This document shows, one piece after another, positions 4,518 through 40,380 of a DNA stretch of 64,000 bases. This stretch comes from Deltaproteobacteria bacterium (GTDB lineage Bacteria > Desulfobacterota > JAENJC01): assembly GCA_030646755.1 (NCBI GenBank), contig JAUSKU010000036.1, positions 3,465 to 67,464 of the forward strand. Direction: 5' to 3'. Made by a program: the position numbers and the translations under genes. How positions within the stretch are numbered: position 1 is the first letter of the stretch; every line of letters begins with the position of its first letter. The notes under the pieces are model-generated. The model was not told the origin of the DNA and did not search any database. It was given only the letters and a program-made list of their open reading frames with translations.

Positions 4518-4625
4518 TAAGCCGTCGTTCAAAATTAACCTGGACATCAGAATGGCGGGAACGGCATAAGGGGCCGTAAAGGCTTAACCAGAAAAGCACT
4601 GGTTATTCCTTAACGACTCCTAAGT
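4518..4625 (-). repeat. 108-nt dispersed structured element, copy A (reverse orientation relative to copy B at 22887..22994)
   Basis: Its reverse complement aligns by eye to 22887..22994 with about 7 mismatches in 108 nt. It lies in the divergent kinase/polX intergenic region. Confidence 0.8.
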
Positions 4626-4725
4626 TTGCATATGAAAATATACCTTTAACGACTACATCCTGCAACCAAAATTAGGATAATTGCCGGAGTTGACGATTTT
4701 CGCATCCTCGTATAACCTTTGGAAC

Positions 4726-6459
4726 ATGGAAAATCTCGACATAGCAAAGGTGTTTTACGAGATAGCGGACCTCCTTGAGATAAAGGGGGAGAACCCTTTC
4801 AGGATACGTTCCTACAGGAATGCAGGACTTGTCATAGAGGGGCTGCCTGTGAATATTAAAAGCATAGTTGAAAGGAACGAGGAGGAGTTGGAGGAGATAC
4901 CGGGGATTGGCGAGAGCCTCCATGAGAAGATAGTCGAGATACTTAAGACAGGTAAAAGTCATTTTCATCAGGAACTATTAAGGGAGCTTTCGCCAAGTCT
5001 CCTTGATCTCCTGAAGGTTTCCGGCGTTGGTCCGAAAAAAGTGAAGCTTTTCTATGACGAGCTTGGAATAAAGTCTATTGAAGAGCTTGAAAAGGCGGCT
5101 ACTGCTGGGAAACTCCGAGGTCTTCCGGGAATGGGAGAGAAGAGCGAGGAGAAGATCCTAAAGGGGATCAAGAGCTTCCAGGCCACCGTCGGGAGGTTCG
5201 GACTGGCTGTCGGGCTTTCTTATGCAGACCAGATTGTTGAATACCTTAAAAAGACACCGGGAGTGATAGATGCAGTTCCTGCCGGAAGCCTCAGGAGATG
5301 GAAGGAGACAATAGGGGACTTAGACATCCTCGTGACGGCAAAGAAGGCGAGTACTGTCATGGACAGATTCGTTTCATTCCCTGATGTGGCGAGCGTTGTC
5401 GCAAAAGGGGATACTAAAACTACGGTAATGCTGAAGAACGGGATGCAGACTGATGTTCGGGTACTGGATAAGAAGTCCTTCGGCGCTGCCCTTCAGTATT
5501 TCACTGGCTCAAAGGCCCATAACGTGGCGTTGCGAGACAGGGCGAACAGGATGGGGCTTAAGATAAGCGAATATGGAGTATTCAGGGAGAAGGACGAGAA
5601 ATGGATTGCTGGCGAAAAAGAGGAGGATGTATACAAGGCAGTGGGTCTTCCCTACATCCCGCCGGAGCTTCGCGAGAACAGGGGCGAGATTGGGGCCGCA
5701 GAAAAGGGAAAACTGCCGAAGTTGATCGAGGTTGATGATATTAAAGGCGACCTCCATATCCACACAAAGGCGAGCGACGGCGGGAACACCATCGAAGTGC
5801 TGGCGGAGTATGCCGTTAAGAAGGGATATGAATACATAGCAATAACAGACCACTCAAAGGCCGTTGGAATCGCCCACGGGCTTAATGAAGAAAGACTTCT
5901 TAAACAGATTGAAGAGATTGACAGGTTCAATAAACGTCTCACTTCTCACGGCTCACCTTTCACGGTTCTTAAAGGCACAGAGGTTGATATTAAGGGTGAC
6001 GGGACCCTTGACCACAGCGAGGAGGCATTGAAAAAGCTTGATGTAGTGGTCGCCACCGTCCATTCCAAGTTCAACATGACCGAAGAGGATATGACGAAGA
6101 GGATAATAAACGCCATTGAGACCGGCTTAGTGCATGTCATAGCCCATCCCACGGGGAGGCTCCTCACGGGAAGGGAGCCTTACCCTGTGAATATGGAAAA
6201 GCTCCTGGAGGCTGCTAAAAAGCATAATGTCGCCATGGAGGTCAACGCATATCCCGACAGGCTTGACCTGAACGACGTCCATTGCAAGATGGCAAAGGAT
6301 ATGGGGGTGATGCTTGTCATATCAACGGACACCCATCATTACCTACAGATGGATTATATGAGGTTCGGGGTCAATAACGCCCGGCGTGGATGGGTTGAGA
6401 AGAAGGATGTATTGAATACAAGACCGTTAAATGAGCTATTGAAAATGATAAACAGGTAG
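4726..6459 (+). CDS. polX: Family X DNA polymerase with C-terminal PHP domain (PolX)
   Basis: Starts MENLDIAKVFYEIADLLEIKGENPFRIRSYRNA (helix-hairpin-helix N-terminus). Contains GSLRR..IGDLDILV and PHP-domain motifs LHIHTKASDG and ITDHS. The TTG at 4681 in the track is probably an artefactual extension. Confidence 0.88.
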   Translation: MENLDIAKVFYEIADLLEIKGENPFRIRSYRNAGLVIEGLPVNIKSIVERNEEELEEIPGIGESLHEKIVEILKTGKSHFHQELLRELSPSLLDLLKVSGVGPKKVKLFYDELGIKSIEELEKAATAGKLRGLPGMGEKSEEKILKGIKSFQATVGRFGLAVGLSYADQIVEYLKKTPGVIDAVPAGSLRRWKETIGDLDILVTAKKASTVMDRFVSFPDVASVVAKGDTKTTVMLKNGMQTDVRVLDKKSFGAALQYFTGSKAHNVALRDRANRMGLKISEYGVFREKDEKWIAGEKEEDVYKAVGLPYIPPELRENRGEIGAAEKGKLPKLIEVDDIKGDLHIHTKASDGGNTIEVLAEYAVKKGYEYIAITDHSKAVGIAHGLNEERLLKQIEEIDRFNKRLTSHGSPFTVLKGTEVDIKGDGTLDHSEEALKKLDVVVATVHSKFNMTEEDMTKRIINAIETGLVHVIAHPTGRLLTGREPYPVNMEKLLEAAKKHNVAMEVNAYPDRLDLNDVHCKMAKDMGVMLVISTDTHHYLQMDYMRFGVNNARRGWVEKKDVLNTRPLNELLKMINR

Positions 6460-10068: not shown

Positions 10069-10581
10069 ATCGCTAAGGAAACTGTAAGAATCAATAGGAT
10101 GATCAGAGGGACTGAGATAAGGGTAATCGGAAACGATGGTGGTCAGCTTGGGGTCATGAGCGTAAGGGACGCGCTGGCGCAAGCTGAAGCCGAGGGACTG
10201 GATCTGGTTGAGATATCTCCCCAGGCAACCCCTCCTGTGTGCCGTATCATGGACTACGGGAAGTTCAAGTACCAGCAGAGCAAGAAGGCCCATGAGGCAA
10301 AGAAAAAGCAGAGCGTTATACTGGTTAAAGAGGTCAAGCTGGGGCCAAAGACCGAGGAGCATGACTTCCAGTTCAAGTTTAAGCACGTCCTCAGGTTTTT
10401 GGAAGATGGGAATAAGGCCAAGGTCAGCGTATTTTTCAGGGGTAGGGAGATGGCCCATACCGACATAGGCAGGGTGCTGTTAGACAGGATGGCGGAGATG
10501 GTAAAGGATTTCGGCGTTATCGAACAGTCGCCAAGGCTGGAAGGAAAGAATATGACCATGATTATTGCACCGAAAAAATAA
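10069..10581 (+). CDS. infC: Translation initiation factor IF-3, probable non-AUG (AUC) start
   Basis: The conserved N-terminal motif ..[18 protein letters not shown] lies upstream of the first ATG (10099). The frame is open from 10045. GGGAGG at 10055-10060 is 8 nt before ATC 10069. Confidence 0.85.
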
Positions 10582-10588
10582 TAAATGC

Positions 10589-10642
10589 CGTGAGGCGTTA
10601 GGAGTGAGGAGTGAATTTACACCTTACACCTTACGCTTTACG
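10589..10642 (+). promoter_or_regulatory. Long imperfect RNA hairpin in the infC-rpmI spacer
   Basis: The 5' arm (10589-10613) pairs with the 3' arm (10619-10642) at 21 of 24 positions, including 3 G:U pairs. It ends 9 nt before the rpmI SD. Confidence 0.45.
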
Positions 10643-10660
10643 AATAATAAAGGAGGTAAC

Positions 10661-10858
10661 ATGCCAAAGTTAAAAACACATAGGGGAGCAGCAAAGAGGT
10701 TCAAGTTGACTGCCTCTGGTAAGGTTAAGAGGAGTAAGGCCTTCAGGAGGCATATCCTTACAAGTAAGTCAACATCAAGGAAGAGAAGCTTGAGAGGCGG
10801 AGCTCTTGTATCCCCAGCTGATCAGAAGAACATGAAAATGTTGATACCATATCTTTAA
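10661..10858 (+). CDS. rpmI: 50S ribosomal protein L35
   Basis: Starts [24 protein letters not shown]. An AGGAGG SD lies at 10651. The track start at 10565 is an upstream extension. Confidence 0.93.
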
Positions 10859-10865
10859 TAGTAAT

Positions 10866-10923
10866 GTAGGGGTGGCCCTATGTGGCTACCCAAGATAGGG
10901 CAACCACGCAGGGTTGCCCCTAC
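10866..10923 (+). promoter_or_regulatory. Long imperfect RNA hairpin in the rpmI-rplT spacer
   Basis: gtaggggtggccctatgtggctaccc / agggcaaccacgcagggttgcccctac. The arms pair with several G:U pairs and 3 mismatches around a 5-nt loop. Confidence 0.45.
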
Positions 10924-10947
10924 GGAAAATAAATCAAGGAGTCAGAT

Positions 10948-11304
10948 ATGCCCAGAGTAAAAAGAGGACCTAAAGGGAAAAATAAGAGAAAGGCAGTACT
11001 GAAGTTAGCTAAGGGTTACTACAGCAGCAGAAGGATACGTCTGAAGACTGCTCAAGAGACCATTGACAAAGGTCTTAACTATGCATTCAGGGACAGGAAG
11101 GTCAAAAAGAGGGAGTTTAGAGCCCTCTGGATCACCAGGATAAACGCGGCAGTCAGAATGGCAGACCTTTCATACAGCAAATTCATTGCAGGTCTCAAAA
11201 AAGGCGGCGTGGATCTTGACAGGAAGGTCCTTGCAGACCTTTGTGTGAACGACCCTGCCGGCTTTGGTAAACTTGTGACCATCGCCAAAGAAAACATTCA
11301 GTAA
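10948..11304 (+). CDS. rplT: 50S ribosomal protein L20
   Basis: Starts [25 protein letters not shown]; contains [21 protein letters not shown]. Confidence 0.95.
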
Positions 11305-11305
11305 T

Positions 11306-12322
11306 ATGAAAGAAAGGCTCGAAAGTCTGAAGGAAGAGGCAGAGGCCCTTGTTAATAAGGTATCTGATGAGCAGGGGCTCCTTTCCATTAAGGCCCGTTA
11401 TCTCGGGAAGAAGGGTGAGATTACGTCGATCCTTAAGGAGATGGGCTCTCTTCAGCCATTAGAGCGACCGGCCTTCGGTCAACTCGTAAACCTTGTAAAA
11501 GACAGTCTTGAGAAAGCGGTCGAAGAAAGGCTTATCTTTCTAAGAAAAAGAGTCACTGAAGAGGCGCTCAAGGGTGAGAAGGTCGATGTGACCTTGCCGG
11601 GAAGAAGGATGCCGGTTGGGAAGAGGCATCCTCTGACCCAGGTGATGGATGATGTTGTAGGTATATTCACAAGGATCGGGTATTCCGTGGCGGATGGTCC
11701 TGAGATTGAGACGGATTATTATAACTTCGAGGCCCTGAATATCCCCAAGGACCACCCTGCCAGGGATATGCAGGATACCTTCTACATATCTGAGGAAAAG
11801 GTCCTAAGAACCCACACATCCCCTGTTCAGATAAGGACCATGGAAAGACAGGCGCCTCCAGTGCGGATAATAGCCCCAGGCTCTGTTTACAGGTGCGATT
11901 CAGATGTTACTCATTCGCCTATGTTTCACCAGGTAGAAGGGCTTATGGTCGATAAGGGGATATCGTTCGGCGACCTCAAAGGGACATTAAAAATCTTTGT
12001 CAGGGAGATGTTCGGAGAGGATATCTCAATTAGATTCCGGCCCAGCTTTTTCCCATTTACCGAACCTTCCGCTGAGGTTGATATCCAGTGTGTAATGTGT
12101 AAAGGTAAGGGATGCAGGGTCTGCTCGGGATCAGGATGGCTGGAGATAATGGGCTGCGGGATGGTAGACCCAGCGGTTTTGGGTTTTGTCAACTATGACC
12201 CCGAACTGTACACGGGGTTTGCCTTCGGTATGGGAATAGAGCGGATTGCCATGCTTAAATACAAGATAAACGACATAAGACTGTTTTTTGAGAATGACGT
12301 ACGATTCTTAAACCAATTTTGA
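11306..12322 (+). CDS. pheS: Phenylalanine--tRNA ligase alpha subunit
   Basis: Motifs [28 protein letters not shown] and [16 protein letters not shown]. Starts 1 nt after the rplT stop. Confidence 0.95.
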
Positions 12323-12346
12323 TTTTTTAAAAAAGGAAACGCCCCC

Positions 12347-15300
12347 ATGAAAATCCTTAAGTTTGCAATATTAATGATGCTTGGACTACTCTTCTTTATT
12401 CCAACACCCTCATCCGCCTACACCTTGCAGGATGTTCAGAACTATCTCGATACCCATCCAGCGCCTTCTGGCTGCTCCAACTGGACGGAAGAATATACGT
12501 CAAATGGCCAAAAAGGGGTGAAGGTGTGGAAGAGGTGCGGGGATTGGACTGTGGCAAGCTATGAAGTAACCGCGACCGGTCCCCAGGATAATTGGGGTTA
12601 TTACGGTGGCGCACGATTTTGTGATGGAACTCAGAATACAGGTGCTGGTTGGCCGGTTTATAAACTCTGTGATGTTACATCAAAATACACATACTGTAAT
12701 GGCGCTGTATGGGAACGTCATCAAAATAGCTGTGTGTCTAGTTGGACGTGGGGAATTGCCAGCCCATGTCTTCTTGAAAAAACTGTCTATTCTGACTGTA
12801 AGAATTTAGACACCCTTCTCACCACCTTCTTTCCAATAACAAATTGCGTCGACGGCGATTATGACGGTTTTTACAAATATGACGCCGTATGGTGTTCCCA
12901 AGGTAATGACTGTGACGACGGTAACTTAAAAATCAATCCAAATACTTACTGGTACAAGGACGCCGATAATGACGGCTATAGTGATGGAACAACGACAGGT
13001 CCACAATGCCAGAGGCCGGCTGGATATAAACTTGCATCAGAGCTTAAATCTATGGAAAACGACTGCGACGACACGCAATCGCAGTTTAACCCCGAACACC
13101 CGTGCTGTGATTTAAAGATCAATATGGACAAAAACGCAGTTACGATCAGTCCAAGCACAGGAGGGGGAATACAAATTACGGGTAGCATAAGCGACAGTTC
13201 AAACAAAGCCGTTGAATGGGAAGTTGCTTTGCCCAATGGTAAAACAGAAAAAGGGACTGGAAAGACCATATCCGTTACATGGGACGGCAAGGGGAGTGAT
13301 GGCAAGGTCATCAAGCCTGAGCCTGGACAGACGATGGAATTGGCAGCAAGCGTCAATGCAAAAGAAACGGATAATCCCGATTGCAAAGACTCAAAGAGCA
13401 TACCAATAAAGATAGAATGGGTGAAAGATGCTTGTATGCTCAAGGTGACGGTCGGCTCTTCCGCCAACGTTGCCAATGGCAATCTCTCCCATTCCCAAGA
13501 GTTGTTCTCCACAAAAGGGACAGGATTGACCATCTATTACAACAGTCTCGACTCATACACCGGCCCCCTTGGTAAAGGATGGAGCCATAACTATGATATG
13601 GAGATCGGGGAAAGCATCGACGGGTATGTAATCGTTAGAGAAGGGGACGGGGGAAGAAGAGTCTACACAAATAACGGCGGCAGCTACACAAGCCAGCCGG
13701 GTGACTATACCGCCCTTATCAAGAACGCGGACGGCACATTCATAATAACCTACAAAGAAGGCACAAGGTACGACTACAACGCCATAGGGAAAATTGCTGC
13801 AATAGCCGACAGGAACGGCAACGCCGTCTCGTTTACTTACAATTCAGGCAATGACCTTGCATCAATAACTGACTCCGCAGGAAGGACAACGAGCCTTAGC
13901 TACAACGCAGACCATCGTATAAGCACGATCAACGATCTCAACGGCAATATTCACAGCTTCACGTATTCAGGAAGTGATCTTATAAGCGTCACAACGCAGT
14001 CGTCAGTCGTCAGTCAGCAGTCATGGAGTTACACATATTACGAAAACTCTTTCATGCACACAAAGACCGACCCCAACGGATACACGACCACATACACATA
14101 CGATGAAGACCACAGGGTGGCAACCTCGACAGACCCGGAAGGGAATGTAAAGAGCATAGCGTATCCTCAAGCAGATGACACAAGCCAGACAAAGACGACA
14201 ACAGTAACGGAAAAAGACGGAGGAAACTGGACATATACATACGACACTCAGGCAGGGACACTTACATCAAAGACAGACCCGGAGAACGGCACAGCCAGCT
14301 ATACATACGACGAAAACAGGAACATGACGTCAAAGACGGAGCCGGATGGCAGCGTGACAAGCTACACCTATGATTCAAACGGCAACATGGCATTACAGAC
14401 AGACGCCTTAGATCAGACAACAACGTATACGTATAATGCCTACGGGCTGGTCACAAGCATCACAGACCCACAAAACAACACCACAACCTACGAATACGAC
14501 ACGACCGGAAACTTGACAAAGACCACAGATGCAACCGGGGCAAGCACAAGCTATCAGTATGATGCAAAAGGAAACGTTATCCAAATTAAAGATGCTGTAG
14601 GACAGACAACCTCATTTACTTACGATCAACAAAACAACCTAAGCAGCATTACAGACCCCACCGGAGCAACCATCAGCTTTACTTATGACACAGCAGGGAA
14701 CATGACGAGCCAGACAGACGCAAGCGGAGCAACCACCAGGTTTGAATACAACTCCCTTGGCCGACTCATAAAGGTCATAGACCCAAGCGGGAACTCCACA
14801 AACTCGACTTATGACAATAACGGCAACAAGACCTCTGAAACCGACGCCAACGGGAATACAACGGATTACGAATACAACTACAAAGGGCAGCTTATAAAGG
14901 TAAAAGACGCCCTCGGCAATGTGACGACCTACACTTACGGCGGAACCGGCTGCTCATCCTGCGGCGGAGGGACGGACAAGCTGACGGTGATTACCGATGC
15001 TAACGGGAACACGACAAGTTATGAATACGACAAGCTTGGAAGGCTTATCAAAGAAACAGACCCGCTTGGAAATGCAATCAGCTATTCTTATGATTCTAAA
15101 GGGAATCTGCTTTCAAAGACCGATGCCAATAGTGCTGTAATAAGCTATTCATACGACAGCCTTGGAAGGCTCTTAAAGAAGGCATATCCAGACAACACAA
15201 CAGAGAGCTTTACTTACGATTCCAAAGGCAACATCCTGACGGCCACGAATTCCAATACCTCCTACACCTTTGGTTACAACACCAGCGGCAAAGTCACGTC

Positions 15301-16897
15301 TGTGGCTGATTCAAATAGCAGGACTGTAAGTTATCAATATGATTCTATTGGAAACAAAACGAAGCTGACATATCCAGAAGGCTCAACGGTTACCTATTCC
15401 TATGACACAGCAAACAGGCTTAAATCCATCGTTAACGGCGGCGGTAGGACCTACACATATTCATACGACAGCCTGGGAAGAAGGTCAAAACTGAGCCTGC
15501 CTAATGGGACAAGCGCAAACTATTCCTATGACGCAAGTGGGAGGCTGATAGGTCTGATTCATAAGGCTTCCAATGGCTCTGTAATCACACAATACAGCTA
15601 CACCCACGATAAGGTCGGCAACCGGCTATCTAAGACCAACACCGATGTTAAGAATGATTATAGCTATGATGCTATATACAGGCTTCTCCAGTCCTTACCA
15701 GCAAAGCTTCAGGGAAAAGATATAACTCAAGACAATAAGGCCGAGGCTTTTAACTATGACCCTGTAGGAAATAGACTCACAGGGCCGGAAGCAAAGGACG
15801 GCTATACTTACAATACTGCAAACCAGCTAACCAGTGACCGCATGCATCAATACGAATATGATAAGAACGGAAACCTTGTAAAGAGGGTTGAGACCGAAGA
15901 CGATGGAGCGGCAAAGGTCTGGACGTATTCTTATGATTATGAAAACAGGCTGAACAAGGTTGTTAAGCAGGAAGATACCAAAATCACAACGGTCGCCTTT
16001 AGGTATGATCCTTTTGGAAGAAGGCTTGAAAAGAAGGTAGAGGAAACTAAGGACGGGAAGACCGACACAAAGACTTATGCCTATGTTTACGACAACGAAG
16101 ATATAATCCTCGAATATCTCACAAAGACGGAGGACGGCAAAACTAAGACAGAAGCCACTAAATATGTTCATGGCCCAGGAATTGATGAACTTTTGGCTAT
16201 TGAACGCAAAGGAGAGGTCTATTTCTATCATGCCGATGGGCTTGGCTCTGTCACTGCTTTAACAGATAAAAAGCAAAAGGTGATTGAAAGCTACACTTAT
16301 TCGTCATTTGGTGAGGTTAAGAGAAAAGGAGATAAGGTAAAGAATACCTATACGTTTACTGCACGAGAGTGGGATGAGGAAATAGGCTTATACTATGTGC
16401 GCGCCCGTTATCTCGACCCCGTGACCGGACATTGGACGTCGTTTGACCCACTGTTGCATCCCGCAAATGGGGCATCAAAATTCAAAGGATGTTCACAAAA
16501 CATTGGCCATCCTACTTTTGATAAGTTAATGAAAAAGCCGCAGAAACTCAATCCGTACAATTATGTCGAGGCAAACCCTATAATGCTAAAAGACCCAACT
16601 GGATTAGGTTCATGTGGCTCTGGGAAGAATGAACCATATGTGCCAGACAATTATGGATTCTATAATCTTACAGGACCTTGTGAGAACCACGATAAGTGTT
16701 ACGGCACATGCGGCAATTCAAGAATTATGTGTGACCTATTTTTATTTGCGGACATAATGAAGGAATGCTCAAAACTGACCTGGGACCCAATAAATCAAGT
16801 CGGTTGTATTGAGGTTGCATATATCTATTATGGGTTCGTGGCTACTTTTGGCCAAAAACCATATAATGAAGCACAAAAAGCTGCTTGCTGTACATAA
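12347..16897 (+). CDS. Secreted RHS/YD-repeat polymorphic toxin with a Cys-rich C-terminal tip
   Basis: Signal peptide MKILKFAILMMLGLLFFIPTPSSA; DCDD..NP metal-binding-like motifs; an Ig-like segment; about 40 YD repeats (YxYDxxGN); RHS core end YYVRARYLDPVTGHWTSFDP; demarcation motif DPTGL; then a 96-aa tip. Confidence 0.9.
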   Translation: MKILKFAILMMLGLLFFIPTPSSAYTLQDVQNYLDTHPAPSGCSNWTEEYTSNGQKGVKVWKRCGDWTVASYEVTATGPQDNWGYYGGARFCDGTQNTGAGWPVYKLCDVTSKYTYCNGAVWERHQNSCVSSWTWGIASPCLLEKTVYSDCKNLDTLLTTFFPITNCVDGDYDGFYKYDAVWCSQGNDCDDGNLKINPNTYWYKDADNDGYSDGTTTGPQCQRPAGYKLASELKSMENDCDDTQSQFNPEHPCCDLKINMDKNAVTISPSTGGGIQITGSISDSSNKAVEWEVALPNGKTEKGTGKTISVTWDGKGSDGKVIKPEPGQTMELAASVNAKETDNPDCKDSKSIPIKIEWVKDACMLKVTVGSSANVANGNLSHSQELFSTKGTGLTIYYNSLDSYTGPLGKGWSHNYDMEIGESIDGYVIVREGDGGRRVYTNNGGSYTSQPGDYTALIKNADGTFIITYKEGTRYDYNAIGKIAAIADRNGNAVSFTYNSGNDLASITDSAGRTTSLSYNADHRISTINDLNGNIHSFTYSGSDLISVTTQSSVVSQQSWSYTYYENSFMHTKTDPNGYTTTYTYDEDHRVATSTDPEGNVKSIAYPQADDTSQTKTTTVTEKDGGNWTYTYDTQAGTLTSKTDPENGTASYTYDENRNMTSKTEPDGSVTSYTYDSNGNMALQTDALDQTTTYTYNAYGLVTSITDPQNNTTTYEYDTTGNLTKTTDATGASTSYQYDAKGNVIQIKDAVGQTTSFTYDQQNNLSSITDPTGATISFTYDTAGNMTSQTDASGATTRFEYNSLGRLIKVIDPSGNSTNSTYDNNGNKTSETDANGNTTDYEYNYKGQLIKVKDALGNVTTYTYGGTGCSSCGGGTDKLTVITDANGNTTSYEYDKLGRLIKETDPLGNAISYSYDSKGNLLSKTDANSAVISYSYDSLGRLLKKAYPDNTTESFTYDSKGNILTATNSNTSYTFGYNTSGKVTSVADSNSRTVSYQYDSIGNKTKLTYPEGSTVTYSYDTANRLKSIVNGGGRTYTYSYDSLGRRSKLSLPNGTSANYSYDASGRLIGLIHKASNGSVITQYSYTHDKVGNRLSKTNTDVKNDYSYDAIYRLLQSLPAKLQGKDITQDNKAEAFNYDPVGNRLTGPEAKDGYTYNTANQLTSDRMHQYEYDKNGNLVKRVETEDDGAAKVWTYSYDYENRLNKVVKQEDTKITTVAFRYDPFGRRLEKKVEETKDGKTDTKTYAYVYDNEDIILEYLTKTEDGKTKTEATKYVHGPGIDELLAIERKGEVYFYHADGLGSVTALTDKKQKVIESYTYSSFGEVKRKGDKVKNTYTFTAREWDEEIGLYYVRARYLDPVTGHWTSFDPLLHPANGASKFKGCSQNIGHPTFDKLMKKPQKLNPYNYVEANPIMLKDPTGLGSCGSGKNEPYVPDNYGFYNLTGPCENHDKCYGTCGNSRIMCDLFLFADIMKECSKLTWDPINQVGCIEVAYIYYGFVATFGQKPYNEAQKAACCT

Positions 16898-16918
16898 ATG
16901 AAACGCTAAAGAGGATTT

Positions 16919-17287
16919 ATGAAGAAAAAAACTTTTAAAAACGCAAAAGCATTATCACTTTTTCTGGGCATCATTCATGCTGGCGGTTTTTTTTGGTTTA
17001 GTGAGTTCTATCTATCGGAATCAGTCTTCTTTATATTTTTTACAGCATCAACAGGACTCGCTTTGCTTGTATCTCCATTGGTTTCAGATGTCTTATTAGG
17101 CTTTACTGTTGTTCGCATGTTAGTAATACTTCTTGTGAGCATAGGTATCTTAAACAATCTATATATGATGTATGGCGATTTAACGGCTCTTTATTTCCCT
17201 GACATTCATGCATTTATTATAAGAATACTTGTGTTATATGTCCTTATAATAATGTTACGCAGAATCATTAATTCAAAACTGGTATGA
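16919..17287 (+). CDS. Small multi-pass membrane protein, candidate cognate immunity protein
   Basis: 122 aa with about 4 hydrophobic helices. An agagga SD precedes it, and it starts 21 nt after the RHS stop. No family recognised; the role is inferred from position only. Confidence 0.45.
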   Translation: MKKKTFKNAKALSLFLGIIHAGGFFWFSEFYLSESVFFIFFTASTGLALLVSPLVSDVLLGFTVVRMLVILLVSIGILNNLYMMYGDLTALYFPDIHAFIIRILVLYVLIIMLRRIINSKLV

Positions 17288-17326
17288 GAGTAAACGAGTG
17301 AAAAGTCCGTAGAGAGAAGAGATAAG

Positions 17327-18365
17327 GGGTCAGGTCTACATTCTTGACAGAATAAAATTCCTTTGATAAGTTTCGAGGCAAATACTTGAAACACTCAAAG
17401 GAGGCGAAGATGGCCAGGCCGTTAAGAATCGAATATCCCATGCGTTTTACCATGCGACATCGCGAGGGAATGAAAAGAAGGAGATATTTAAAAGCTCGGG
17501 GGATCGGGAGAAGTTTCTTGAATACCTGGAATCAGCCGTCACTCGATATGGAGCCGTCATTCATATATACTGCCTTATGAGCAACCATTACCACATACTG
17601 CTTGAAACGCCTCTGGGGAATCTATCTCAGATAATGCGCCACATTAACGGCGCTTACACGACATATTACAATACGAAGAGAAAAAGGGCCGGGCATCTAT
17701 TCCAAGGTCGGTATAAAGCCATACTTATACAAGCGGATGAATACGCAAAAGAGCTTTCCAGGTACATACACCTGAACCCGGTAAGAGCTGGGATAACAGC
17801 CAGGCCGGAAGAATACCACTGGTCCAGTTACAAAGCCTATGCTGGTAAAGGAAAGAGACCCGAATGGCTCACGACTGACTTTATCCACGGATTCTTTGAC
17901 AGGAACAAGACAAAAGCCCAGGAGAAATACCAACGGTTTACAAATGAACTGATTGGTAGTGAATACGAAAGCCCGCTAAAAGAAACAATTGCATCCACGA
18001 TACTTGGAAGACAAGATTTTATAAGCGAAATAACGGAAAAACACATAGGCAAAAAAAAGAAAGACCGCAATATTCCTGCACTGAGAGAGCTTTTGAGGAT
18101 GCCGACAATAGAAGAAATCATAAACAAAGTCAAGGCGGCAATGGGAGAAGATGAGTATCTGGCAACATCTGCAAGCATCTATTTATGTCACAAGCACAGC
18201 GGAGCAAGACTAAAAGAGATAGGCACCCGCTTTGGAATAGGAGAATCAGCGGTATCGCAGGCAAGCCGCAGGTTTGCGTTTAAAATAGCAAAGGATGTTA
18301 AATTGAAGAAGGCGATAGAAAGGATAGAGGGTGAGTTAAATGTGTCAAGAGTGTAGACCTGACCC
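17327..18365 (+). mobile_element. RAYT/IS200-like Y1 transposase unit bounded by 23-bp inverted repeats (decayed)
   Basis: 17327-17349 gggtcaggtctacattcttgaca matches the reverse complement of 18343-18365 at 22 of 23 positions. The repeats enclose the Y1 transposase pseudogene. Confidence 0.55.
17410..18356 (+). pseudogene. Y1 (HUH) tyrosine transposase with a DnaA-C-like HTH tail, frameshifted near 17440
   Basis: MARPLRIEYP reads in one frame, then AFYHATSRGNEKKEIFKSSGDREKFLEYLESAVTRYGAVIHIYCLMSNHYHILLE continues in the +2 frame. HUH motif NHYHILL; Tyr motif RYIHLNPVRAG; C-terminal LKEIGTRFGIGESAVSQASRRF. Confidence 0.6.
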
Positions 18366-18386
18366 TTTTAGGTCCTTTTAGGTCCC

Positions 18387-18421
18387 TTTGCCTTCGGTAT
18401 GGGAATAGAGCGGATTGCCAT
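18387..18421 (+). repeat. 35-nt exact duplicate of an internal pheS segment (12218..12252)
   Basis: tttgccttcggtatgggaatagagcggattgccat is present at both positions. The second copy lies outside any pheS reading frame context. Confidence 0.85.
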
Positions 18422-18542
18422 AAACATTAGTCACAGAGGTCTCAGAGTAACTCCCTCCAACCCCCTCTTAAATTAAGAGGGGGTGCCGAAGGCGGGGGCG
18501 TTAGTATTTTTCTGTGTGCTCTGTGGCAAAAAGGATTTTCAG

Positions 18543-20933
18543 GTGAAAATTTCACTAAACTGGCTAAAAGATTTTGTTGATATAGACATCTCCCCAGAGA
18601 GGCTTGCTGAGATACTGATAACTGCAGGTCTTGAGGTTGAGGGTATTACAAGGCTTGGTGAAGGGCTTGATAATGTGGTAATGGCCCGCATCCTTTCCAT
18701 GAGACCCCATCCAAATGCCGACAGGCTTACATTGTGTTCTGTGACTACAGGGGATAAGGACCATGCCATAGTTTGCGGCGCCAAGAATATGAAGGAAGGG
18801 GATATAGTCGCATTGGCTCTTCCGGGCGCCCATCTCCCCAGCGGGATGAAGATAACAAAGAGTAAGATAAGGGGCGAGGTGTCAGAGGGGATGCTCTGTT
18901 CCGAAACTGAACTCGGACTTGCCAAAGAATCCGCAGGGATAATGATCCTGCCGGAGGGGCATGGGGGGGTGACGCTTGGAAACACTCTTGCCGATGCATT
19001 GATGATGAGAGATATTGTCTTTGACATAAACCTGACGCCAAACAGGTCTGATTGTCTTTCTGTTATCGGGATTGCGAGGGAGGTTGTAGCCTTAACCGGG
19101 AAGGTGTTGAAAAGGCCGGAGATCAAACTCACAGAGGGAGATTTTGACACATCTTCCTCAGTAACTATCGAGGTTTTGGACCCGGGTGCATGTCCAAGGT
19201 ATACGGCCAGGGTTGTAAAAGGTATTAAGACTGGACCATCCCCATTATGGATGAAGAGAAGGCTTGAGGCTTCAGGGATCAGGTCTATAAACAACATCGT
19301 TGACGTTACGAACTACGTGATGATGGAGATGGGGCAGCCCCTTCATGCCTTTGACCTCGGCCTCATTGGCGGCGATAAGATTAAAATAAGAAAGGCTGAA
19401 GACGGTGAGAGGATAACTACCCTTGACGGCATAGAGAGGGTTCTTGACCAAGATGTCCCGGTTATTTCCGACAATAAAAGGGCTGTGGCCGTTGCAGGAG
19501 TGATGGGAGGGACAGGGTCTGAGATTTCAGAAGCAACCGTCGACATTTTCCTTGAGAGTGCCTATTTCAAGCCGTCCGTAGTCAGGAAGACTGCCAAGAG
19601 ATTTGCCATGCATACGGAATCTTCTCATCGCTTTGAGAGGGGGATTGACCCCAACGGAGTACTGGAGGCGTCGGACAGGGCCGTTCAATTGATACTGCAG
19701 GTTGCAGGAGGTTCAGCATCCTCAAAACCGATAGATATATACCCGAAGAAGATAGCCCCGGTGAATATAGAGATGAGGGTAAGCAGGGCCAAAAGCATTC
19801 TCGGTCTGGATACGGACATTGGTTCGGTTGTAGAGATATTTAAGATGCTTGAATATGGTGTAGAAGAGGTTGATGCGGACCGTATAAGGGTCACCCCTCC
19901 GACCTCCAGGGTCGACCTGACCAGGGAGATAGACCTCATAGAAGAGGTGGCCAGGCTCAGGGGTTATGACAGCATACCGACTACTTATCCGAAGGTGGAG
20001 GCTAAGGCTGGTGAAAGGGATAAGAATGGAGCCCTTCAGGATAAAATTCGGGGGTTCCTTTCAGGGAACGGTTTTTATGAGGCAGTGACATACACCTTCT
20101 TGTCTCCCACGGCCCTTTCACCGTTTCTTCCACCAGGTGTTGAACCAATAAGACTTTTGAACCCTTTGAGCGAGGACCAGTCTGTTCTAAGGACAACCAT
20201 TATCCCATCATTGCTTGAGGTTGTCGGCAGGAATCTCAGTTATCAGAATGAAAACCTGCGGTTCTTCGAGATAGGGAGGGTCTTTCCCTTACCTGGCGAC
20301 GAAGAGGGTGAGAAGGTTGTTGTCTCCGGGATCATGATCGGCCTGAGGTATCAAAAGGCCTGGAATCTCCCGGCTAACGAACTTGACTTCTTTGATGTAA
20401 AGGGTGTTGCAGAAAGTCTATTGGAGATGGCCGGCAGTTCAGCGACTTTCGTACACGATGAAACCATCCGATTCCTCCACCCCGGCAAGTCTGCTGTAGT
20501 CCAGGCGGACGGACTGGATGTGGGGATCTTGGGAGAGATCCATCCTGATGTTATGGAAAGGTTTGATATAAAGGGAAGGGCCTATATATTTGAGATCGAG
20601 CTTGGTGGAGTTACAGGGTTGTCAAGGGAAGCCTCCTTTACTCACATCCCTAAATTCCCTGCGGTTTACAGGGATATAGCCATTCTGGTTGATGACCATA
20701 TCCCTGCCGATATGGTTTTGAAGGCGACCAAGGGTGTGGATCCGCTTATAGCAGATGTTTCTCTCTTCGACCTTTATCATGGGGAACATATCCCAGAAGG
20801 TAAGAAGAGCTTGGCCTATTCCATCAGGTATCAGGCCCAGGACAGGACATTAAGGGAAGAAGAGGTGAACTTGTTGCACGAGAAGGTTCTCTCGGTTATT
20901 AAAGAAAATGTGGGTGGAGTTTTAAGGGGGTAA
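18543..20933 (+). CDS. pheT: Phenylalanine--tRNA ligase beta subunit
   Basis: GTG start giving VKISLNWLKDFVDI, the typical PheT N-terminus. tRNA-binding, B3/4, B5 and FDX-ACB regions are recognisable. The track start at 18483 runs through an upstream hairpin. Confidence 0.93.
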   Translation: MKISLNWLKDFVDIDISPERLAEILITAGLEVEGITRLGEGLDNVVMARILSMRPHPNADRLTLCSVTTGDKDHAIVCGAKNMKEGDIVALALPGAHLPSGMKITKSKIRGEVSEGMLCSETELGLAKESAGIMILPEGHGGVTLGNTLADALMMRDIVFDINLTPNRSDCLSVIGIAREVVALTGKVLKRPEIKLTEGDFDTSSSVTIEVLDPGACPRYTARVVKGIKTGPSPLWMKRRLEASGIRSINNIVDVTNYVMMEMGQPLHAFDLGLIGGDKIKIRKAEDGERITTLDGIERVLDQDVPVISDNKRAVAVAGVMGGTGSEISEATVDIFLESAYFKPSVVRKTAKRFAMHTESSHRFERGIDPNGVLEASDRAVQLILQVAGGSASSKPIDIYPKKIAPVNIEMRVSRAKSILGLDTDIGSVVEIFKMLEYGVEEVDADRIRVTPPTSRVDLTREIDLIEEVARLRGYDSIPTTYPKVEAKAGERDKNGALQDKIRGFLSGNGFYEAVTYTFLSPTALSPFLPPGVEPIRLLNPLSEDQSVLRTTIIPSLLEVVGRNLSYQNENLRFFEIGRVFPLPGDEEGEKVVVSGIMIGLRYQKAWNLPANELDFFDVKGVAESLLEMAGSSATFVHDETIRFLHPGKSAVVQADGLDVGILGEIHPDVMERFDIKGRAYIFEIELGGVTGLSREASFTHIPKFPAVYRDIAILVDDHIPADMVLKATKGVDPLIADVSLFDLYHGEHIPEGKKSLAYSIRYQAQDRTLREEEVNLLHEKVLSVIKENVGGVLRG

Positions 20934-22886: not shown

Positions 22887-22994
22887 ATTTAGGGGCCGTT
22901 AAGGAATAATCAGTGCTTTTCTGGTTACGCCTTTACGGCCTCTTATGCCGTTCCCGCTATTCTGATGTCCAGGTTAATTTTGAACGACGGCTTA
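22887..22994 (+). repeat. 108-nt dispersed structured element, copy B
   Basis: See copy A (4518..4625). It ends 2 nt before the yicC ATG. Confidence 0.8.
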
Positions 22995-25037: not shown

Positions 25038-25178
25038 CTGTTCCTTCTCCTCATTTTTTTCTTCTTTTGCCGTCCGTGGATGGTATCTCAATTATCTTTG
25101 CGCCAGACCTGGCTATTTAGATTGTTTTGTTATGTCAAAATGTGCTATTTTTTAACTTAAATTTTGATAATAGCAAAT

Positions 25179-28061
25179 ATGAACTTTACCCCATACCACG
25201 CCAAATACTTTGCTTACGAACTCACAAAGAGGAGTTCTTCTGACAGCATCCAAAAGCTGGCTGCGACACTTCTGGATGCTCAGGTTGACCTGAACCCGCA
25301 TCAGGTCGAGGCTGCACTTTTCGCCTTTCGTTCCCCGTTGTCCAAGGGGGCTGTTCTGGCAGATGAAGTTGGTCTGGGAAAGACCATAGAGGCCGCGCTT
25401 GTGATCTCCCAGAAGTGGGCGGAGCGTAAGAGAAAGATACTTGTCATAACCCCTGCCAATCTCCGCAAACAATGGAGCCAGGAACTATTGGACAAGTTCT
25501 TCCTCCCTTCCATGATTATGGAAACAAAGTCTTTCAACGAGGCGGTAAAGGCCCGTAACCTTAACCCTTTCGAATCTAAAGAAATAGTTCTTTGTTCATA
25601 CCAGTTTGCCCGTTCTAAAGAGGCTTATATCCACTCAGTTCCGTGGGACCTGGTCGTAATTGATGAGGCTCACCGGCTAAGGAATGTTTACAAGTCGTCA
25701 AACAAGATCGGAAAATCCATTAAAAAAGCCCTTGAACATGCCCCAAAGATATTGCTTACCGCCACGCCACTTCAAAACTCATTACTTGAGCTTTACGGTC
25801 TTGTAAGCATTATAGATGACTACGCCTTTGGAGATATAAAAAGCTTCCGGACACAATACAGCCGGGCCAACAGTACACCGGATGAAAAGGTCTTTCAGGA
25901 ACTCAAGGAAAGGCTCAAGCCCGTTTGCAAGAGGACCCTTCGCAGGCAGGTCCTTGAATATATCAAATACACCAACCGCATAGCATTGGTTGAAGAGTTC
26001 TACCCTACTCCTGAAGAACAGAGGCTTTATGACCTTGTCTCGGATTATCTGCAAAGCGAGAGCCTATACGCCCTTCCTACCAGCCAGCGCCAGTTGATGA
26101 CCCTGATACTCAGAAGGCTCCTGGCCTCTTCAACCTTTGCCATTTCCGGCACTCTGGCGGTATTAGCAGGGAGGCTTGATAATCTCGTTTCAACCCATAC
26201 CCCCGGCAACGGTGGTGTAGATGAGACCATTTCAAGCGACTTTGAGACCTACGATGAACTAAAAGACGAGTGGGAAGAAGACGGTGAGGAGGCGGGAGAA
26301 GAGCCAAAATACACAGAGCATGACATTGAAAATATTAAGGCCGAGATAAGTTCCCTGAATGAGTTCGAGAAACTGGCAAAATCCATTAGCAAGAACTCAA
26401 AGGGTGAAAAGCTGATTACTGCCCTTGAGAGGGGTTTTACGGAGCTTGAAAGACTGGGCGCTAAGCGCAAGGCAATTATCTTTACCGAGAGCACCCGCAC
26501 CCAGGAGTATCTGCGGAAAACCCTTGAAGAAAGGGGATATGCCGGGAAGGTCGTTCTTTTCAACGGTTCAAACAACGATCCAAAATCAAGGGAGATTAAC
26601 AAGAACTGGATAGAACGACACAAGGGCACAGACAGGGTATCCGGCTCAAAGACAGCGGATATGAGGGCGGCCATTGTGGATTACTTCCGTGAGGAAGCAA
26701 CCGTAATGATTGCCACCGAGGCAGCAGCGGAAGGGATTAACCTTCAGTTCTGCTCCCTGGTGGTCAATTACGACCTTCCATGGAATCCGCAGCGGATAGA
26801 GCAGCGCATTGGCCGTTGCCACCGTTACGGCCAGGAGTTCGATGTGGTTGTTGTGAACTTCCTGAACAAGGCCAACGCCGCAGACCAGAGGGTCTATCAG
26901 TTGCTTAACGAGAAGTTCAACCTGTTCAATGGCGTGTTCGGTTCCAGTGATGAGGTCTTGGGAAGCATAGAAAGCGGTGTGGATTTTGAAAAGAGGATCG
27001 CAAGGATATACCAGGAGTGTCGCACCTCTGAACAGATAGAAACGGCCTTTAACGAATTACAGTCTGAGCTTGAGGGGCAGATATCGGACACCATGAAGCA
27101 GACCAGGACGCAGTTGCTTGAGAACTTTGACGAGGAAGTTCACGAAAAGCTCCGTATCAACCTGGAAGAGAGCAAGGCTTACCTGTCAAAGTATGAAAAC
27201 TGGCTCTGGAGCATTACCCGCTTCTATCTCGGCAACGATGCAGATTTTGCAAGTGATGAACATTCTTTCAGCCTCAAACGCAACCCGTTCCCGGACACAC
27301 AAATACACCCAGGCCCTTATCGCATAGGAAAGAATATTGACGAGTCCAACGTGTACCGCATAAGCCACCCATTGGCACAGGGTATTATCGCCCGGTGTAA
27401 AGAATACAGTTTGCCCGAAAAGGAGTTGGTCTTCGATTATTCAGGTACGCCAAAGAAGATTTCCATACTTGAACCGCTTGTCGGTAAGTCAGGCTGGTTA
27501 ATGGCACAGGTGCTCTCCGTCTCTTCTTTTGAAACAGAAGATTATGTCCTGCTGAGCGGGTTCGCCTCCGGTGGCCTGGCATTGGATACGGAGCAATGCC
27601 GCCGCTTGTTCTCACTGTCTGCTGCCGAAAGGGGCGCAGATATTCAAATCACGAATACCGATAATAAAAGCCTGAAAGATAACCTTGCGTCCCAGAAGAA
27701 CGTCATATTGAGCGATATAAACACCCGGAATGCCGATTACTTTGAGCAAGAGCTGGAAAAGCTGGATAAGTGGGGAGAAGACCGCAGGAATTCGCTGAAA
27801 ATCACCCTGAAGGAGTTGGACGACCAGATCAAGGAAATAAAGAAGCAGGCCCGTCTTGCCCCAAATCTGCCTGAAAAGTTGAAGTTGGAGAAGGAAAGGC
27901 GTAAACTGGAGGCCCAAAGAGACGAGGCCTGGAGAGAATACGATGGGGCAGCAAAGGAGATTGAAAAGAGCAAGGACGGCCTGATTGATGAGATTGAAAA
28001 GAAGCTCAGTCAGGAGATAAAGGAAGAACAGCTCTTTTTGATTAGATGGACGTTAGCGTGA
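25179..28061 (+). CDS. SNF2-family ATPase/helicase with a long C-terminal extension ending in a coiled coil
   Basis: Motifs LADEVGLGKTIEA, VIDEAHRLRN, LLLTATPLQNSL and NYDLPWNPQRIEQRIGRCHRYGQ. The C-terminal ~340 aa belong to no recognised family, and the last ~100 aa are K/E-rich heptad-like. Confidence 0.85.
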   Translation: MNFTPYHAKYFAYELTKRSSSDSIQKLAATLLDAQVDLNPHQVEAALFAFRSPLSKGAVLADEVGLGKTIEAALVISQKWAERKRKILVITPANLRKQWSQELLDKFFLPSMIMETKSFNEAVKARNLNPFESKEIVLCSYQFARSKEAYIHSVPWDLVVIDEAHRLRNVYKSSNKIGKSIKKALEHAPKILLTATPLQNSLLELYGLVSIIDDYAFGDIKSFRTQYSRANSTPDEKVFQELKERLKPVCKRTLRRQVLEYIKYTNRIALVEEFYPTPEEQRLYDLVSDYLQSESLYALPTSQRQLMTLILRRLLASSTFAISGTLAVLAGRLDNLVSTHTPGNGGVDETISSDFETYDELKDEWEEDGEEAGEEPKYTEHDIENIKAEISSLNEFEKLAKSISKNSKGEKLITALERGFTELERLGAKRKAIIFTESTRTQEYLRKTLEERGYAGKVVLFNGSNNDPKSREINKNWIERHKGTDRVSGSKTADMRAAIVDYFREEATVMIATEAAAEGINLQFCSLVVNYDLPWNPQRIEQRIGRCHRYGQEFDVVVVNFLNKANAADQRVYQLLNEKFNLFNGVFGSSDEVLGSIESGVDFEKRIARIYQECRTSEQIETAFNELQSELEGQISDTMKQTRTQLLENFDEEVHEKLRINLEESKAYLSKYENWLWSITRFYLGNDADFASDEHSFSLKRNPFPDTQIHPGPYRIGKNIDESNVYRISHPLAQGIIARCKEYSLPEKELVFDYSGTPKKISILEPLVGKSGWLMAQVLSVSSFETEDYVLLSGFASGGLALDTEQCRRLFSLSAAERGADIQITNTDNKSLKDNLASQKNVILSDINTRNADYFEQELEKLDKWGEDRRNSLKITLKELDDQIKEIKKQARLAPNLPEKLKLEKERRKLEAQRDEAWREYDGAAKEIEKSKDGLIDEIEKKLSQEIKEEQLFLIRWTLA

Positions 28062-28155
28062 GAGTCTAATAACCGGATGCCCGACAGTAGGCTTCGGGCA
28101 TGACAAATTAAATGCAATGGTGATTTAGAAGATGAAAAAACAGTTACCAAAAAAC

Positions 28156-28182
28156 TTGACACAGGTAAGCGACTGTTATAGT
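28156..28182 (+). promoter_or_regulatory. Putative extended -10 promoter in the SNF2/DUF1016 spacer
   Basis: TTGACA (28156-28161), a 15-nt spacer, then TGT-TATAGT (28174-28182). Confidence 0.45.
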
Positions 28183-28293
28183 TTAGCATCAACAACACCT
28201 GCCACGCCTCTCGTGATAAACGATGCGCACCCCGGCGGGTTTTTTTATGCCTGAAATATGGGAACAGTCTATGTCGAAAGGGTCGTCTGAACT

Positions 28294-29334: not shown

Positions 29335-29365
29335 AGTAATAGGTGTTCCGGGCGACAAAAGGGGG

Positions 29366-29401
29366 TGTCATTCCCGCAGTTTTTAGGCGGGAATCCATAG
29401 G
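29366..29401 (+). repeat. Conserved hairpin element, copy 1 (attcccgc/gcgggaat)
   Basis: An 8-bp stem with a 9-nt loop, 32 nt after the DUF1016 stop. A related copy with a compensatory stem change lies at 46630..46665 (minus). Confidence 0.6.
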
Positions 29402-29452
29402 AGTTTTCTGGATGTCCGACAGAAGCGACAATAGGCATGAGGAGATGTAAAA

Positions 29453-31357: not shown

Positions 31358-31359
31358 CA

Positions 31360-32121: not shown

Positions 32122-32125
32122 AGTT

Positions 32126-39776: not shown

Positions 39777-39982
39777 CTATTTCCCCTTCCCACTCTCCAA
39801 CACCTGTCTCAAAATCGAAGCCGTAAACCTTATGTCATCAAGCGATTGACCCTGTAAAAGCAATACAAGCTCCTGAAAGGCGGCCTTACGTTCCCTTCCT
39901 CAAACATGAACAGTTCATATACCTCAACGCCAAGGCATTCGGCGATATGCTCCAAGGTCTTGAGGTATGGGGCCTGTTTGCC
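39777..39982 (-). pseudogene. Decayed XRE-family HTH gene remnant, copy 1
   Basis: The minus strand reads GKQAPYLKTLEHIAECLGVEVYELFMFEE, then shifts frame into ERKAAFQELVLLLQGQSLDDIRFTASILRQVLESGKGK. There is no start codon and the internal HTH is deleted. Confidence 0.5.
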
Positions 39983-39990
39983 TTATATTC

Positions 39991-40018
39991 TTGCAATATG
40001 CCAGCAAAATGATATAAT
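39991..40018 (+). promoter_or_regulatory. Sigma70-type promoter of the DUF433/DUF5615 pair
   Basis: TTGCAA (39991-39996), a 16-nt spacer, then TATAAT (40013-40018). Confidence 0.55.
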
Positions 40019-40047
40019 CACGGTGTATTTTAGGTCGGAGATATTAA

Positions 40048-40377: not shown

Positions 40378-40380
40378 AAT

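Follow-up and report, generated by a model that had tools for sequence, protein, structure and literature searches.

A probable composite Rhs element between pheS and pheT in an uncultured groundwater lineage of Thermodesulfobacteriota

The pheS–pheT locus and its insert

The 64-kb stretch of DNA analysed here (the window) belongs to an uncultured groundwater genus of the Thermodesulfobacteriota. In this window the essential synthetase genes pheS and pheT lie 6,220 nt apart, and the gap contains an insert of approximately 6.1–6.2 kb formed by an RHS gene, a small gene encoding a putative immunity protein and an insertion sequence (IS)-like unit with a Y1 transposase gene (Table 1). An initial annotation had placed the end of pheS at 12322 and the GTG start of pheT at 18543, and had listed in the gap a 1516-residue RHS protein, a 122-residue membrane protein and a frameshifted Y1 transposase; the open reading frame (ORF) map bears out both coordinates and, together with Pfam, the three genes. 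The RHS gene starts just after pheS, at 24 nt and not at 25 nt as first given. Neither pheS nor pheT is damaged by the insert. The 35-bp direct repeat, the 33-nt inverted repeats and the structured spacer before pheT were not covered by the annotation.

Table 1. Features of the locus, contigs of the independent assembly and loci used for comparison. Positions are those of the window unless a locus is named; SD, Shine-Dalgarno sequence; TM, transmembrane; PLA2, phospholipase A2.
Feature	Position	Strand	Description
pheS	11306-12322	+	intact; tRNA-synt_2d, E=1.9e-106; starts 1 nt past the rplT stop
35-bp direct repeat, left copy	12218-12252	+	inside pheS, codons 305-316
pheS-RHS spacer	12323-12346	+	24 nt; SD AAGGAAA at 12333-12339, 9 nt before the ATG
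RHS ORF	12347-16897	+	1516 residues, intact; body 12347-16606, tip 16607-16897
Membrane ORF, putative immunity gene	16919-17287	+	122 residues; begins 21 nt past the RHS stop
IS-like Y1 unit	17324-18368	+	~1.04 kb; RAYT-like Y1 (HUH) transposase, bounded by 33-nt inverted repeats
Promoter-like site	17344-17372	+	TTGACA-17 nt-TAAGTT inside the left inverted repeat of the Y1 unit; read by eye
Right-hand short spacer	18369-18386	+	between right inverted repeat and pheS fragment; in a tandem CCTTTTAGGTC duplication
35-bp direct repeat, right copy	18387-18421	+	orphan pheS fragment, right edge of the insert
Rest of native-type pheS-pheT spacer	18422-18542	+	long hairpin; SD AAGGA ahead of the GTG
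pheT	18543-20933	+	intact, GTG start, all five PheT domains
Logan contig	10500-12247		depth 18.4
Logan contig L001	12223-18416		6,194 bp; depth 18.4
Logan contig	18392-18486		depth 14.1
Logan contig	18475 onwards		depth 18.9
L090 (same sample as the window)	L090:9538-16810		ABC ATPase-RHS-TM ORF-orphan PLA2 tip-TM ORF-intact Y1 transposase; 25-bp perfect GGGGTCAG repeats
L131			RHS-immunity-GGGGTCAG repeat-transposase
L174			solo GGGGTCAG repeat 30 nt past the immunity gene
L089			130-nt transposase remnant ~80 nt upstream of the RHS gene
L172 (NCBI CAYILT010000042.1)	L172:1764-15982		argG-(112 nt)-RHS-ORF-Y1 transposase-orphan RHS fragment-ORF-partial transposase-ORF-argH

The pheS and pheT genes are neighbours in nearly all bacteria, as the annotation had stated. 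In a survey that searched PheS in one genome per GTDB species and then located PheT by tblastn, pheT starts 4–279 nt after pheS in 75 of the 76 evaluable loci. The sole exception is a metagenome-assembled genome of Ca. Dadabacteria (JAJDTG010000007.1; L005:10001-15111), where dcd, a STAS gene and gyrB come after pheS, and pheT is absent within 10 kb. This locus was rejected as a second insertion between the two genes: its downstream genes are housekeeping, none is mobile, and it represents a natural unlinking. The two genes can thus be unlinked in nature, and to take their co-transcription as a necessity was too strong. Given that the best GTDB match to PheS is only 65% identical, the GTDB set was used for the adjacency statistics alone, and the close relatives were reached via PheT homologues (91–93% identical) and the contigs carrying them.

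These relatives are represented by seven contigs with 91–95% nucleotide identity, from five sources (those named are Logan, ENA, JGI and NCBI). Their gene order is infC-rpmI-rplT-pheS-(99–101 nt)-pheT-ihfA-merR-pfkB-yicC, with the short spacing seen in L082–L087, which supports the view that the flanks of the insert (thrS-infC-rpmI-rplT-pheS and pheT-ihfA-merR) are a conserved cluster; the synteny comparison proposed with the annotation accordingly gives an empty pheS–pheT junction. The nucleotide alignments of the relatives to the window break off at 12318 and restart at 18544. The last 70 nt of pheS (12253-12322) are 91% identical to the relatives, the same value as for the remaining gene, and the start codon of pheT is GTG in the window and ATG in the relatives. 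Other groundwater runs cover the flanks at 40–70x and miss the 12.6–16 kb segment, and contigs that fuse the 3′ end of pheS to the start of pheT exist among them. Since the site is empty in the relatives and in other metagenomes, parsimony points to a gain in the lineage of the window. On this comparison of sequences, the 6.1–6.2 kb segment is a lineage-specific insertion into an otherwise conserved cluster.

Only one public run (SRR13727527) contains the sequence, and its Logan contigs constitute an independent assembly with a gene order identical to that of the window. The contigs are interrupted at two features alone, the 35-bp repeat and a short multi-copy element, and because breaks fall within pheS an exact look-up of PheS gave nothing. 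Contig L001 is unbranched and runs from the final 100 nt of pheS into the RHS gene. The source run offers the pheS tail no other continuation, so that only the arrangement of the window leaves the organism a complete PheS. Both junctions are reproduced by the independent assembly at equal depth, which shows that the insertion is real and single-copy.

By its sequence, the RHS protein fits the definition of an Rhs/YD polymorphic toxin. It begins with a Sec-type signal peptide (residues 1–24, MKILKFAILMMLGLLFFIPTPSSA), followed by a Cys-rich N-terminal region (residues 25–370) with 17 Cys and DCDD motifs of the MopE type, by DUF6531 (residues 374–438) and by a YD/RHS shell that precedes the Rhs-associated core. 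The shell is detected as PF05593 RHS_repeat in 16 stretches (Pfam, E=3.5e-117) and as TIGR01643 YD_repeat_2x in 14 stretches (NCBIfam), and the core as TIGR03696 at residues 1318–1420 (NCBIfam, E=4.6e-15). The core ends in NPIMLKDPTGL, in which DPTGL (residues 1416–1420) is a predicted autoproteolysis motif; DPxGL is invariant in four related tips. The nearest full-length RHS protein elsewhere, in which Pfam detects MopE, is 63% identical overall and only 36% in the tip.

The tip (residues 1421–1516, ~96 residues) contains 9 Cys and has a G+C content (GC) of 0.40, with 0.34 at third codon positions (GC3). The isolated tip scores 37 bits against Pfam PLA2G12 PF06951 (gathering score 34), whereas the full-length protein gives a weak match only; weak matches are also obtained with a prokaryotic PLA2 family and with the structure of a group XIII PLA2 (PDB, E=0.32). 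The motif CENHDKCY at residues 1445–1452 holds the His-Asp dyad (H1448/D1449), and this dyad and five Cys, including the flanking ones, are invariant in four related tips (alignment A1). A canonical YGxYCGxGG calcium loop is not recognisable in the tip. These features suggest a PLA2-like domain and a predicted phospholipase; RHS proteins with PLA2 tips are already present in databases.

The 122-residue product of the next gene is a multi-pass membrane protein (three to four hydrophobic spans, GC 0.33) from a conserved family of five members, its relatives being the homologue in L174 and four database proteins only. L174, from another metagenome, carries a 52%-identical tip and, 19 nt beyond it, a 52%-identical homologue of this ORF, a co-inheritance expected of a toxin–immunity pair. 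The 122-residue protein is therefore likely the cognate immunity protein of the PLA2-like tip, and the linkage argues that tip and immunity genes travel together. The ORFs downstream of the other PLA2-tipped RHS genes (L089, L090 and L171) have no homology to it. Three groundwater runs (X35, X37 and X38) contain ~90%-identical copies of the immunity gene (window 16912-17287) without this RHS body. The gene is accompanied by the toxin tip in X38, and in X35 it reaches a depth of 104x, versus ~10x for the relatives' pheS. This indicates that the tip–immunity module circulates among different genomes.

The composition of the insert is uneven: in the profile proposed with the annotation, the tip and immunity genes are foreign, and the GC of the RHS body is near that of the host (0.46 vs 0.48 for the window). 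GC3 falls from 0.51 in the core to 0.34 in the tip, and tip plus immunity gene have a GC of 0.36 and a GC3 of 0.29–0.34. Their tetranucleotide distance, 0.0457, lies approximately six standard deviations beyond that of equally long host fragments (0.0279 ± 0.003).

The Y1 unit is bracketed by 33-nt inverted repeats (17324-17356 and 18336-18368) that start with GGGGTCAG. The transposase has a Y1 HUH domain with the HYH motif and the conserved Tyr, and a C-terminal extension of ~170 residues with a weak DnaA_C-type helix-turn-helix (HTH). The Pfam domain Y1_Tnp (PF01797) is split between frames at 17410-17441 and 17577-18356, on ORF pieces 17386-17580 and 17577-18356; the natural N-terminus MARPLRIEYP is out of frame with the long piece, whose frame is open at 17400-18356 and lacks a start codon. 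Homologous contigs of another run have an extra A after 17439, so the transposase of the window is broken by a 1-nt deletion. After correction of the frame, it scores 79.8 bits against the RAYT model NF047646 (NCBIfam REP_Tyr_transpos), for which the cut-off is 80. Ends of the GGGGTCAG type bracket the homologous gene ~1 kb apart in many metagenomic loci, transposase-less doublets of the repeat are present in other genomes, and the unit behaves as a multi-copy element that breaks assemblies. Within the window the only copies of the repeat, considered as a repetitive extragenic palindromic (REP) family, are the two flanking ones. Terminal inverted repeats measure 25–34 nt across the loci compared and tnpB is absent from the element; for both reasons it was not assigned to IS200/IS605. 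A weak terminator-like hairpin (18356-18374) lies at the right end of the unit.

Similar arrangements recur at other loci (Table 1). In L090 the RHS protein is a 62%-identical paralogue, and its displaced tip has the canonical YGSYCGPG...CKAHDECY. In L172 the cassette is co-oriented with, and wedged between, argG and argH, housekeeping genes that are normally neighbours; it contains two copies of a different Y1 transposase subfamily with 34-bp perfect inverted repeats, and the orphan RHS fragment begins at the right repeat of the transposase. The RHS loci L171 and L173 have no transposase. We read the partnership of RHS and Y1 genes, as far as these sequences go, as frequent and not obligate, and it suggests that Rhs elements outside Enterobacteria may also travel as composites with an IS-like partner.

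Predicted transcription across the insert

In the + strand from 10500 to 13569, a sigma-70-type scan finds no terminator-like or promoter-like site. The absence of a hairpin or T-run between pheS and the RHS gene, remarked on in the annotation, is confirmed by the folding of the junction, which is unstructured (z=+0.5). The intergenic distances are short, 1 nt between rplT and pheS and 24 nt between pheS and the RHS gene, and the RHS gene has a good SD. These features make co-transcription of the RHS gene with the translation genes likely, and this is the simplest reading of the arrangement. At the gathering threshold, Rfam returns three tRNAs only and no known leader or riboswitch in the region.

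The spacer before pheT is strongly structured (z=-3.7), with a hairpin CACAGAGG...CTCTGTGG at ~18430-18527, directly ahead of pheT. The spacer of the relatives is a long imperfect palindrome of CGCAGAGG-type units (L082:2316-2415), and throughout this genus it is always a long hairpin of short reiterated units, which are CGCAGAGG, CACAGAGG or CGCCTGA depending on the lineage (also L088:1-35). It is a fast-evolving REP-like structure placed between two essential genes, and the genes on its flanks are 91–95% identical. A nested hairpin element of 55–63 nt (CCCCCTCTTAAATTAAGAGGGGGTGCCGAAGGCGGGGGCG...) occupies the loop (18448-18510) and occurs once in the window. It reaches 98x in the source run and 550–1060x in other groundwater metagenomes, where the flanks are at 10–70x, and many different sequences adjoin it; it is consequently a very abundant miniature repeat. 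A 99-nt element with nested G/C-rich hairpins (CCCTCCCCTTGAAAGGGAGGGA...), present at 44723-44821 and 63325-63423 (85% identical), resembles it in style.

The promoter-like site inside the left inverted repeat of the Y1 unit is a likely promoter of the transposase gene and a candidate for that of pheT, 1.2 kb downstream. At the same place L090 has TTGACA-17-TATTCT.

The explanation that we consider probable as a whole is the insertion of a composite Rhs element just past the pheS stop in one lineage. The composite would comprise a Sec-signal toxin with an RHS/YD shell and a PLA2-like tip, a membrane immunity gene and the ~1-kb Y1 unit bounded by GGGGTCAG. The RHS gene would have no promoter of its own; it would come sixth on the thrS-infC-rpmI-rplT-pheS message, with its own SD for translation. 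Then, the toxin would be exported by Sec, autoproteolysis at DPTGL would free the PLA2 tip to attack the membrane phospholipid of competitors, and the membrane protein would shield the producer. The pheT gene would be fed by residual read-through and by the outward-reading promoter in the left inverted repeat. The Y1 unit would be a habitual 3′ companion of tip–immunity modules, in the role of H-rpt in the E. coli Rhs elements, and its transposase, now presumably inactive, would help to fix the insert. Finally, the insertion would be non-site-specific, and the 35-bp piece of pheS either a filler copied from ~80 nt upstream or what is left of a longer duplication.

Several points weigh against this explanation. 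Read-through to pheT would have to cross ~1 kb of untranslated transposase pseudogene, a possible target of Rho-dependent polarity, as well as the weak hairpin at 18356-18374 and the very stable composite hairpin. The candidate promoter matches three of the six positions of the -10 hexamer and falls below the scan threshold, the consensus used is of the sigma-70 type and may not be that of the host phylum, and none of the RNA runs searched carries the window sequence. A Sec-exported RHS protein would still face the outer membrane of a presumed diderm. The tetranucleotide distance of the RHS body (0.028–0.030 vs a host maximum of 0.0279) is somewhat off the host, for which repeat bias may be the cause. 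An RHS gene is nearby in only one of the 25 longer transposase loci, the Y1 unit being mostly without RHS, and the association could partly reflect the accumulation of IS in dispensable DNA. Lastly, no single known mechanism explains the 35-bp copy of pheS, and a comparable copy of the upstream gene was not found at L090 or L172, the two other testable loci.

An alternative that we regard as unlikely, with some weight left to it, is that the cassette is insulated. The RHS gene would have a non-consensus or alternative-sigma promoter or be silent, pheT would be served by a promoter within 18357-18542, and the operon would be split and not extended. The limitation of the scan to sigma-70-type sites, the structured spacer wholly unlike that of the relatives, the change of the pheT start to GTG and the natural unlinking in the Dadabacteria locus are in line with such insulation, whereas the 24 nt between the pheS stop and the RHS ATG leave no room for a promoter outside the coding sequence of pheS, a terminator-like site was not found after pheS, and neither scan nor eye recognises a -35/-10 pair in 18357-18542.

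Insert edges and the origin of the insertion

The left edge of the insert falls within the 12323-12346 spacer. On the right, the orphan copy of the 35-bp repeat sits 18 nt past the right inverted repeat. The two copies are perfect and enclose a unit of 6,169 bp, and there is no similarity beyond the 35 bp on either side. The tetranucleotide AAAC occurs at both presumed edges (12337-12340 and 18422-18425), which fits microhomology and proves nothing. The repeat was considered as an attachment (att) site or target duplication and rejected, since excision would not restore the ancestral junction: deleting one copy and the enclosed DNA would remove the 70-nt pheS tail kept by all relatives. Two routes to the 35-bp copy remain. 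One is the integration of an element carrying the 3′ end of pheS, with subsequent deletion of the host tail; in the other, the insertion would be illegitimate, with ~35 nt copied from 70–88 bp upstream to fill its right junction.

The first of these routes corresponds to a site-specific integrative element, which we judge improbable. Its attP would have included the pheS 3′ end and recombined in the 35-bp core, supplying a replacement tail, and the displaced host tail would have been deleted later. The perfect direct repeats flanking the 6,169-bp unit, the origin of the repeat, as in many islands, from the 3′ end of an essential and conserved gene, and the 3′ end of a transposase upstream of the RHS gene in L089, a hint of circular permutation, all agree with it. 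On the other hand, neither the ORF map nor Pfam reveals an integrase or recombinase in the unit, the similarity stops at 35 bp, L090 and L172 are without a comparable duplication, and an extra deletion must be assumed given that excision loses the pheS tail.

It is more doubtful still that the RAYT-like Y1 unit with GGGGTCAG ends is a dedicated vehicle of RHS tip–immunity modules or whole cassettes. Such a vehicle would set them down immediately after housekeeping genes of the same orientation, pheS in the window and argG in L172, and thereby give them the use of a constitutive transcript, and the 35-nt copy of pheS could be the relic of a sequence-directed targeting, guide-like or homology-primed.

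An ancestral presence of the cassette at this site, with deletion in the relatives, is very unlikely. The near-host GC of the RHS body and the presence of RHS paralogues of the same subfamily in the relatives' communities would suit an old resident, but at least three distinct related lineages (L082, L083 and L084–87), in addition to the populations of X2, X3 and X23, are without the cassette, 75 of the 76 distant genomes are without any insert, and the hairpin spacer of the relatives is complete and scar-free; furthermore, near-identical RHS genes were not found elsewhere (best 63%), and tip and immunity gene are compositionally foreign.

Hardly credible is an assembly chimera, in which the assembler, misled by the 35-bp repeat, would have joined an RHS contig of other origin, or a 6.17-kb circle, into the space between the two genes: at k=31 the Logan contigs do break exactly inside both repeat copies, and at this k the graph alone cannot separate A-R-E-R-B from A-R-B plus a circle, but one unbranched contig (12223-18416) joins the pheS tail to the RHS gene, the tail has no alternative continuation in the run, depth is even across the parts (18.4 to 18.9), A-R-B would give a PheS without its conserved last 22 residues, and the window's own assembly crossed the repeat.

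Other features lie outside the insert. A PHP-domain DNA polymerase of family X is encoded 6 kb upstream (4681-6459); gap-filling polymerases of this family act in end-joining repair. A repeat of ~100 bp occurs twice in opposite orientation (4518-4623, -; 22898-22994, +) and is conserved at 92–95% in relatives (L084:6442-6547) and at L090:1-97. A likely defence island (25164-35035) encodes an SNF2 helicase, a YhcG/DUF1016 PD-(D/E)XK nuclease, an N6/N4 DNA methylase and a Type III-like res helicase with a C-terminal endonuclease domain. A variable region (39789-47620) contains a DUF433/DUF5615 pair (40048-40722), an MmeI-type restriction-modification enzyme (41829-44672), an HNH protein (44956-45654) and a PIN protein (46690-47166), together with three diverged 123-nt repeats (39789, 40766 and 41615) and a 174-nt repeat of 97% identity (46049 and 47447).

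Comparison with known systems

As the locus demonstrates, a toxin cassette of 6 kb is tolerated between two essential synthetase genes that are normally contiguous. It is also a case from nature in which a competition weapon is probably expressed from the transcript of housekeeping translation genes. The literature search found no relevant paper on pheS, pheT and Rhs together. What is new here is the exact repetition of 35 bp of pheS at the right edge and the likely transposase promoter 1.2 kb upstream of pheT.

The tip shares with the secreted PLA2 (group XII PF06951; groups XIII/XIV, e.g. PDB 4AUP) a small disulfide-rich domain and CxxHDxC(Y), and differs from them by its size of ~96 residues and by lacking a recognisable canonical calcium loop. 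The Y1 unit resembles the RAYT/REPIN systems in its Y1 HUH domain, in the position of the gene between inverted short repeats and in the transposase-less doublets of other genomes. Unlike these, it has a DnaA_C-like HTH extension of ~170 residues, behaves as a multi-copy element and has no further repeat copies in the window.

The position of the insert recalls Tn7 at attTn7 and the CRISPR-associated transposons, which also insert a few tens of bp past a conserved essential gene and leave it undisrupted. The likeness extends, in geometry only, to the ~35-nt sequence identical to a site 70–88 bp upstream of the insertion point, reminiscent of a homing spacer. An element of this type was nevertheless discarded, as none of the three genes of the insert is tns, tniQ or cas and there are no CRISPR repeats and no Tn7-type ends.

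The RHS protein has the architecture of the Rhs effectors of type VI secretion systems (T6SS), such as RhsA of P. protegens (PMC8765631) and Tre23-Rhs of Photorhabdus (PMC8636562): a YD cocoon, a DUF6531-type plug region, a C-terminal aspartyl autoproteolysis motif, an enclosed toxin and an adjacent putative immunity gene. A T6SS-dependent effector was rejected, since the protein has a cleavable Sec-type signal instead and no match to PAAR or VgrG, and the 64-kb window has no PAAR, VgrG, T6SS or EagR genes. WapA of Bacillus subtilis and the Sec-dependent YD-repeat toxins likewise combine a signal peptide, a YD shell, a polymorphic tip and an immunity gene directly downstream; WapA, however, is anchored to the wall of a monoderm and its tip is a tRNase, whereas the host of the window is presumably diderm and the tip is PLA2-like.

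In the composite Rhs elements of Escherichia coli (RhsA–E), a core whose GC is near that of the host is combined with an AT-rich tip, a small ORF and an IS-like element (Jackson et al. 2009, PMC2935791; H-rpt, PMC3032704). The window shows the same succession of a large near-host-GC core ORF, an AT-rich variable tip after the hyperconserved PxxxxDPxGL, a small downstream ORF and a 3′ IS-like element, and the related loci L090 and L172 contain displaced orphan tips. The insert is nonetheless not a classical element of the E. coli type: the adjacent IS-like gene is Y1_Tnp, in a role that looks analogous, and the partner is a Y1/HUH RAYT-like unit with GGGGTCAG ends instead of the ISAs1-type H-rpt (DDE). 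The N-terminus has a Sec signal and a Cys-rich domain in place of a PAAR/VgrG-linked clade domain, the host belongs to the Thermodesulfobacteriota and the site is inside a translation-gene cluster. If composite Rhs elements do travel outside Enterobacteria, this would bear on the exchange of toxin tips. The insert is thus a known kind of element, real and well delimited, in a striking position; it leaves the understanding of the Rhs systems unchanged and extends their genomic behaviour to an uncultured groundwater lineage.

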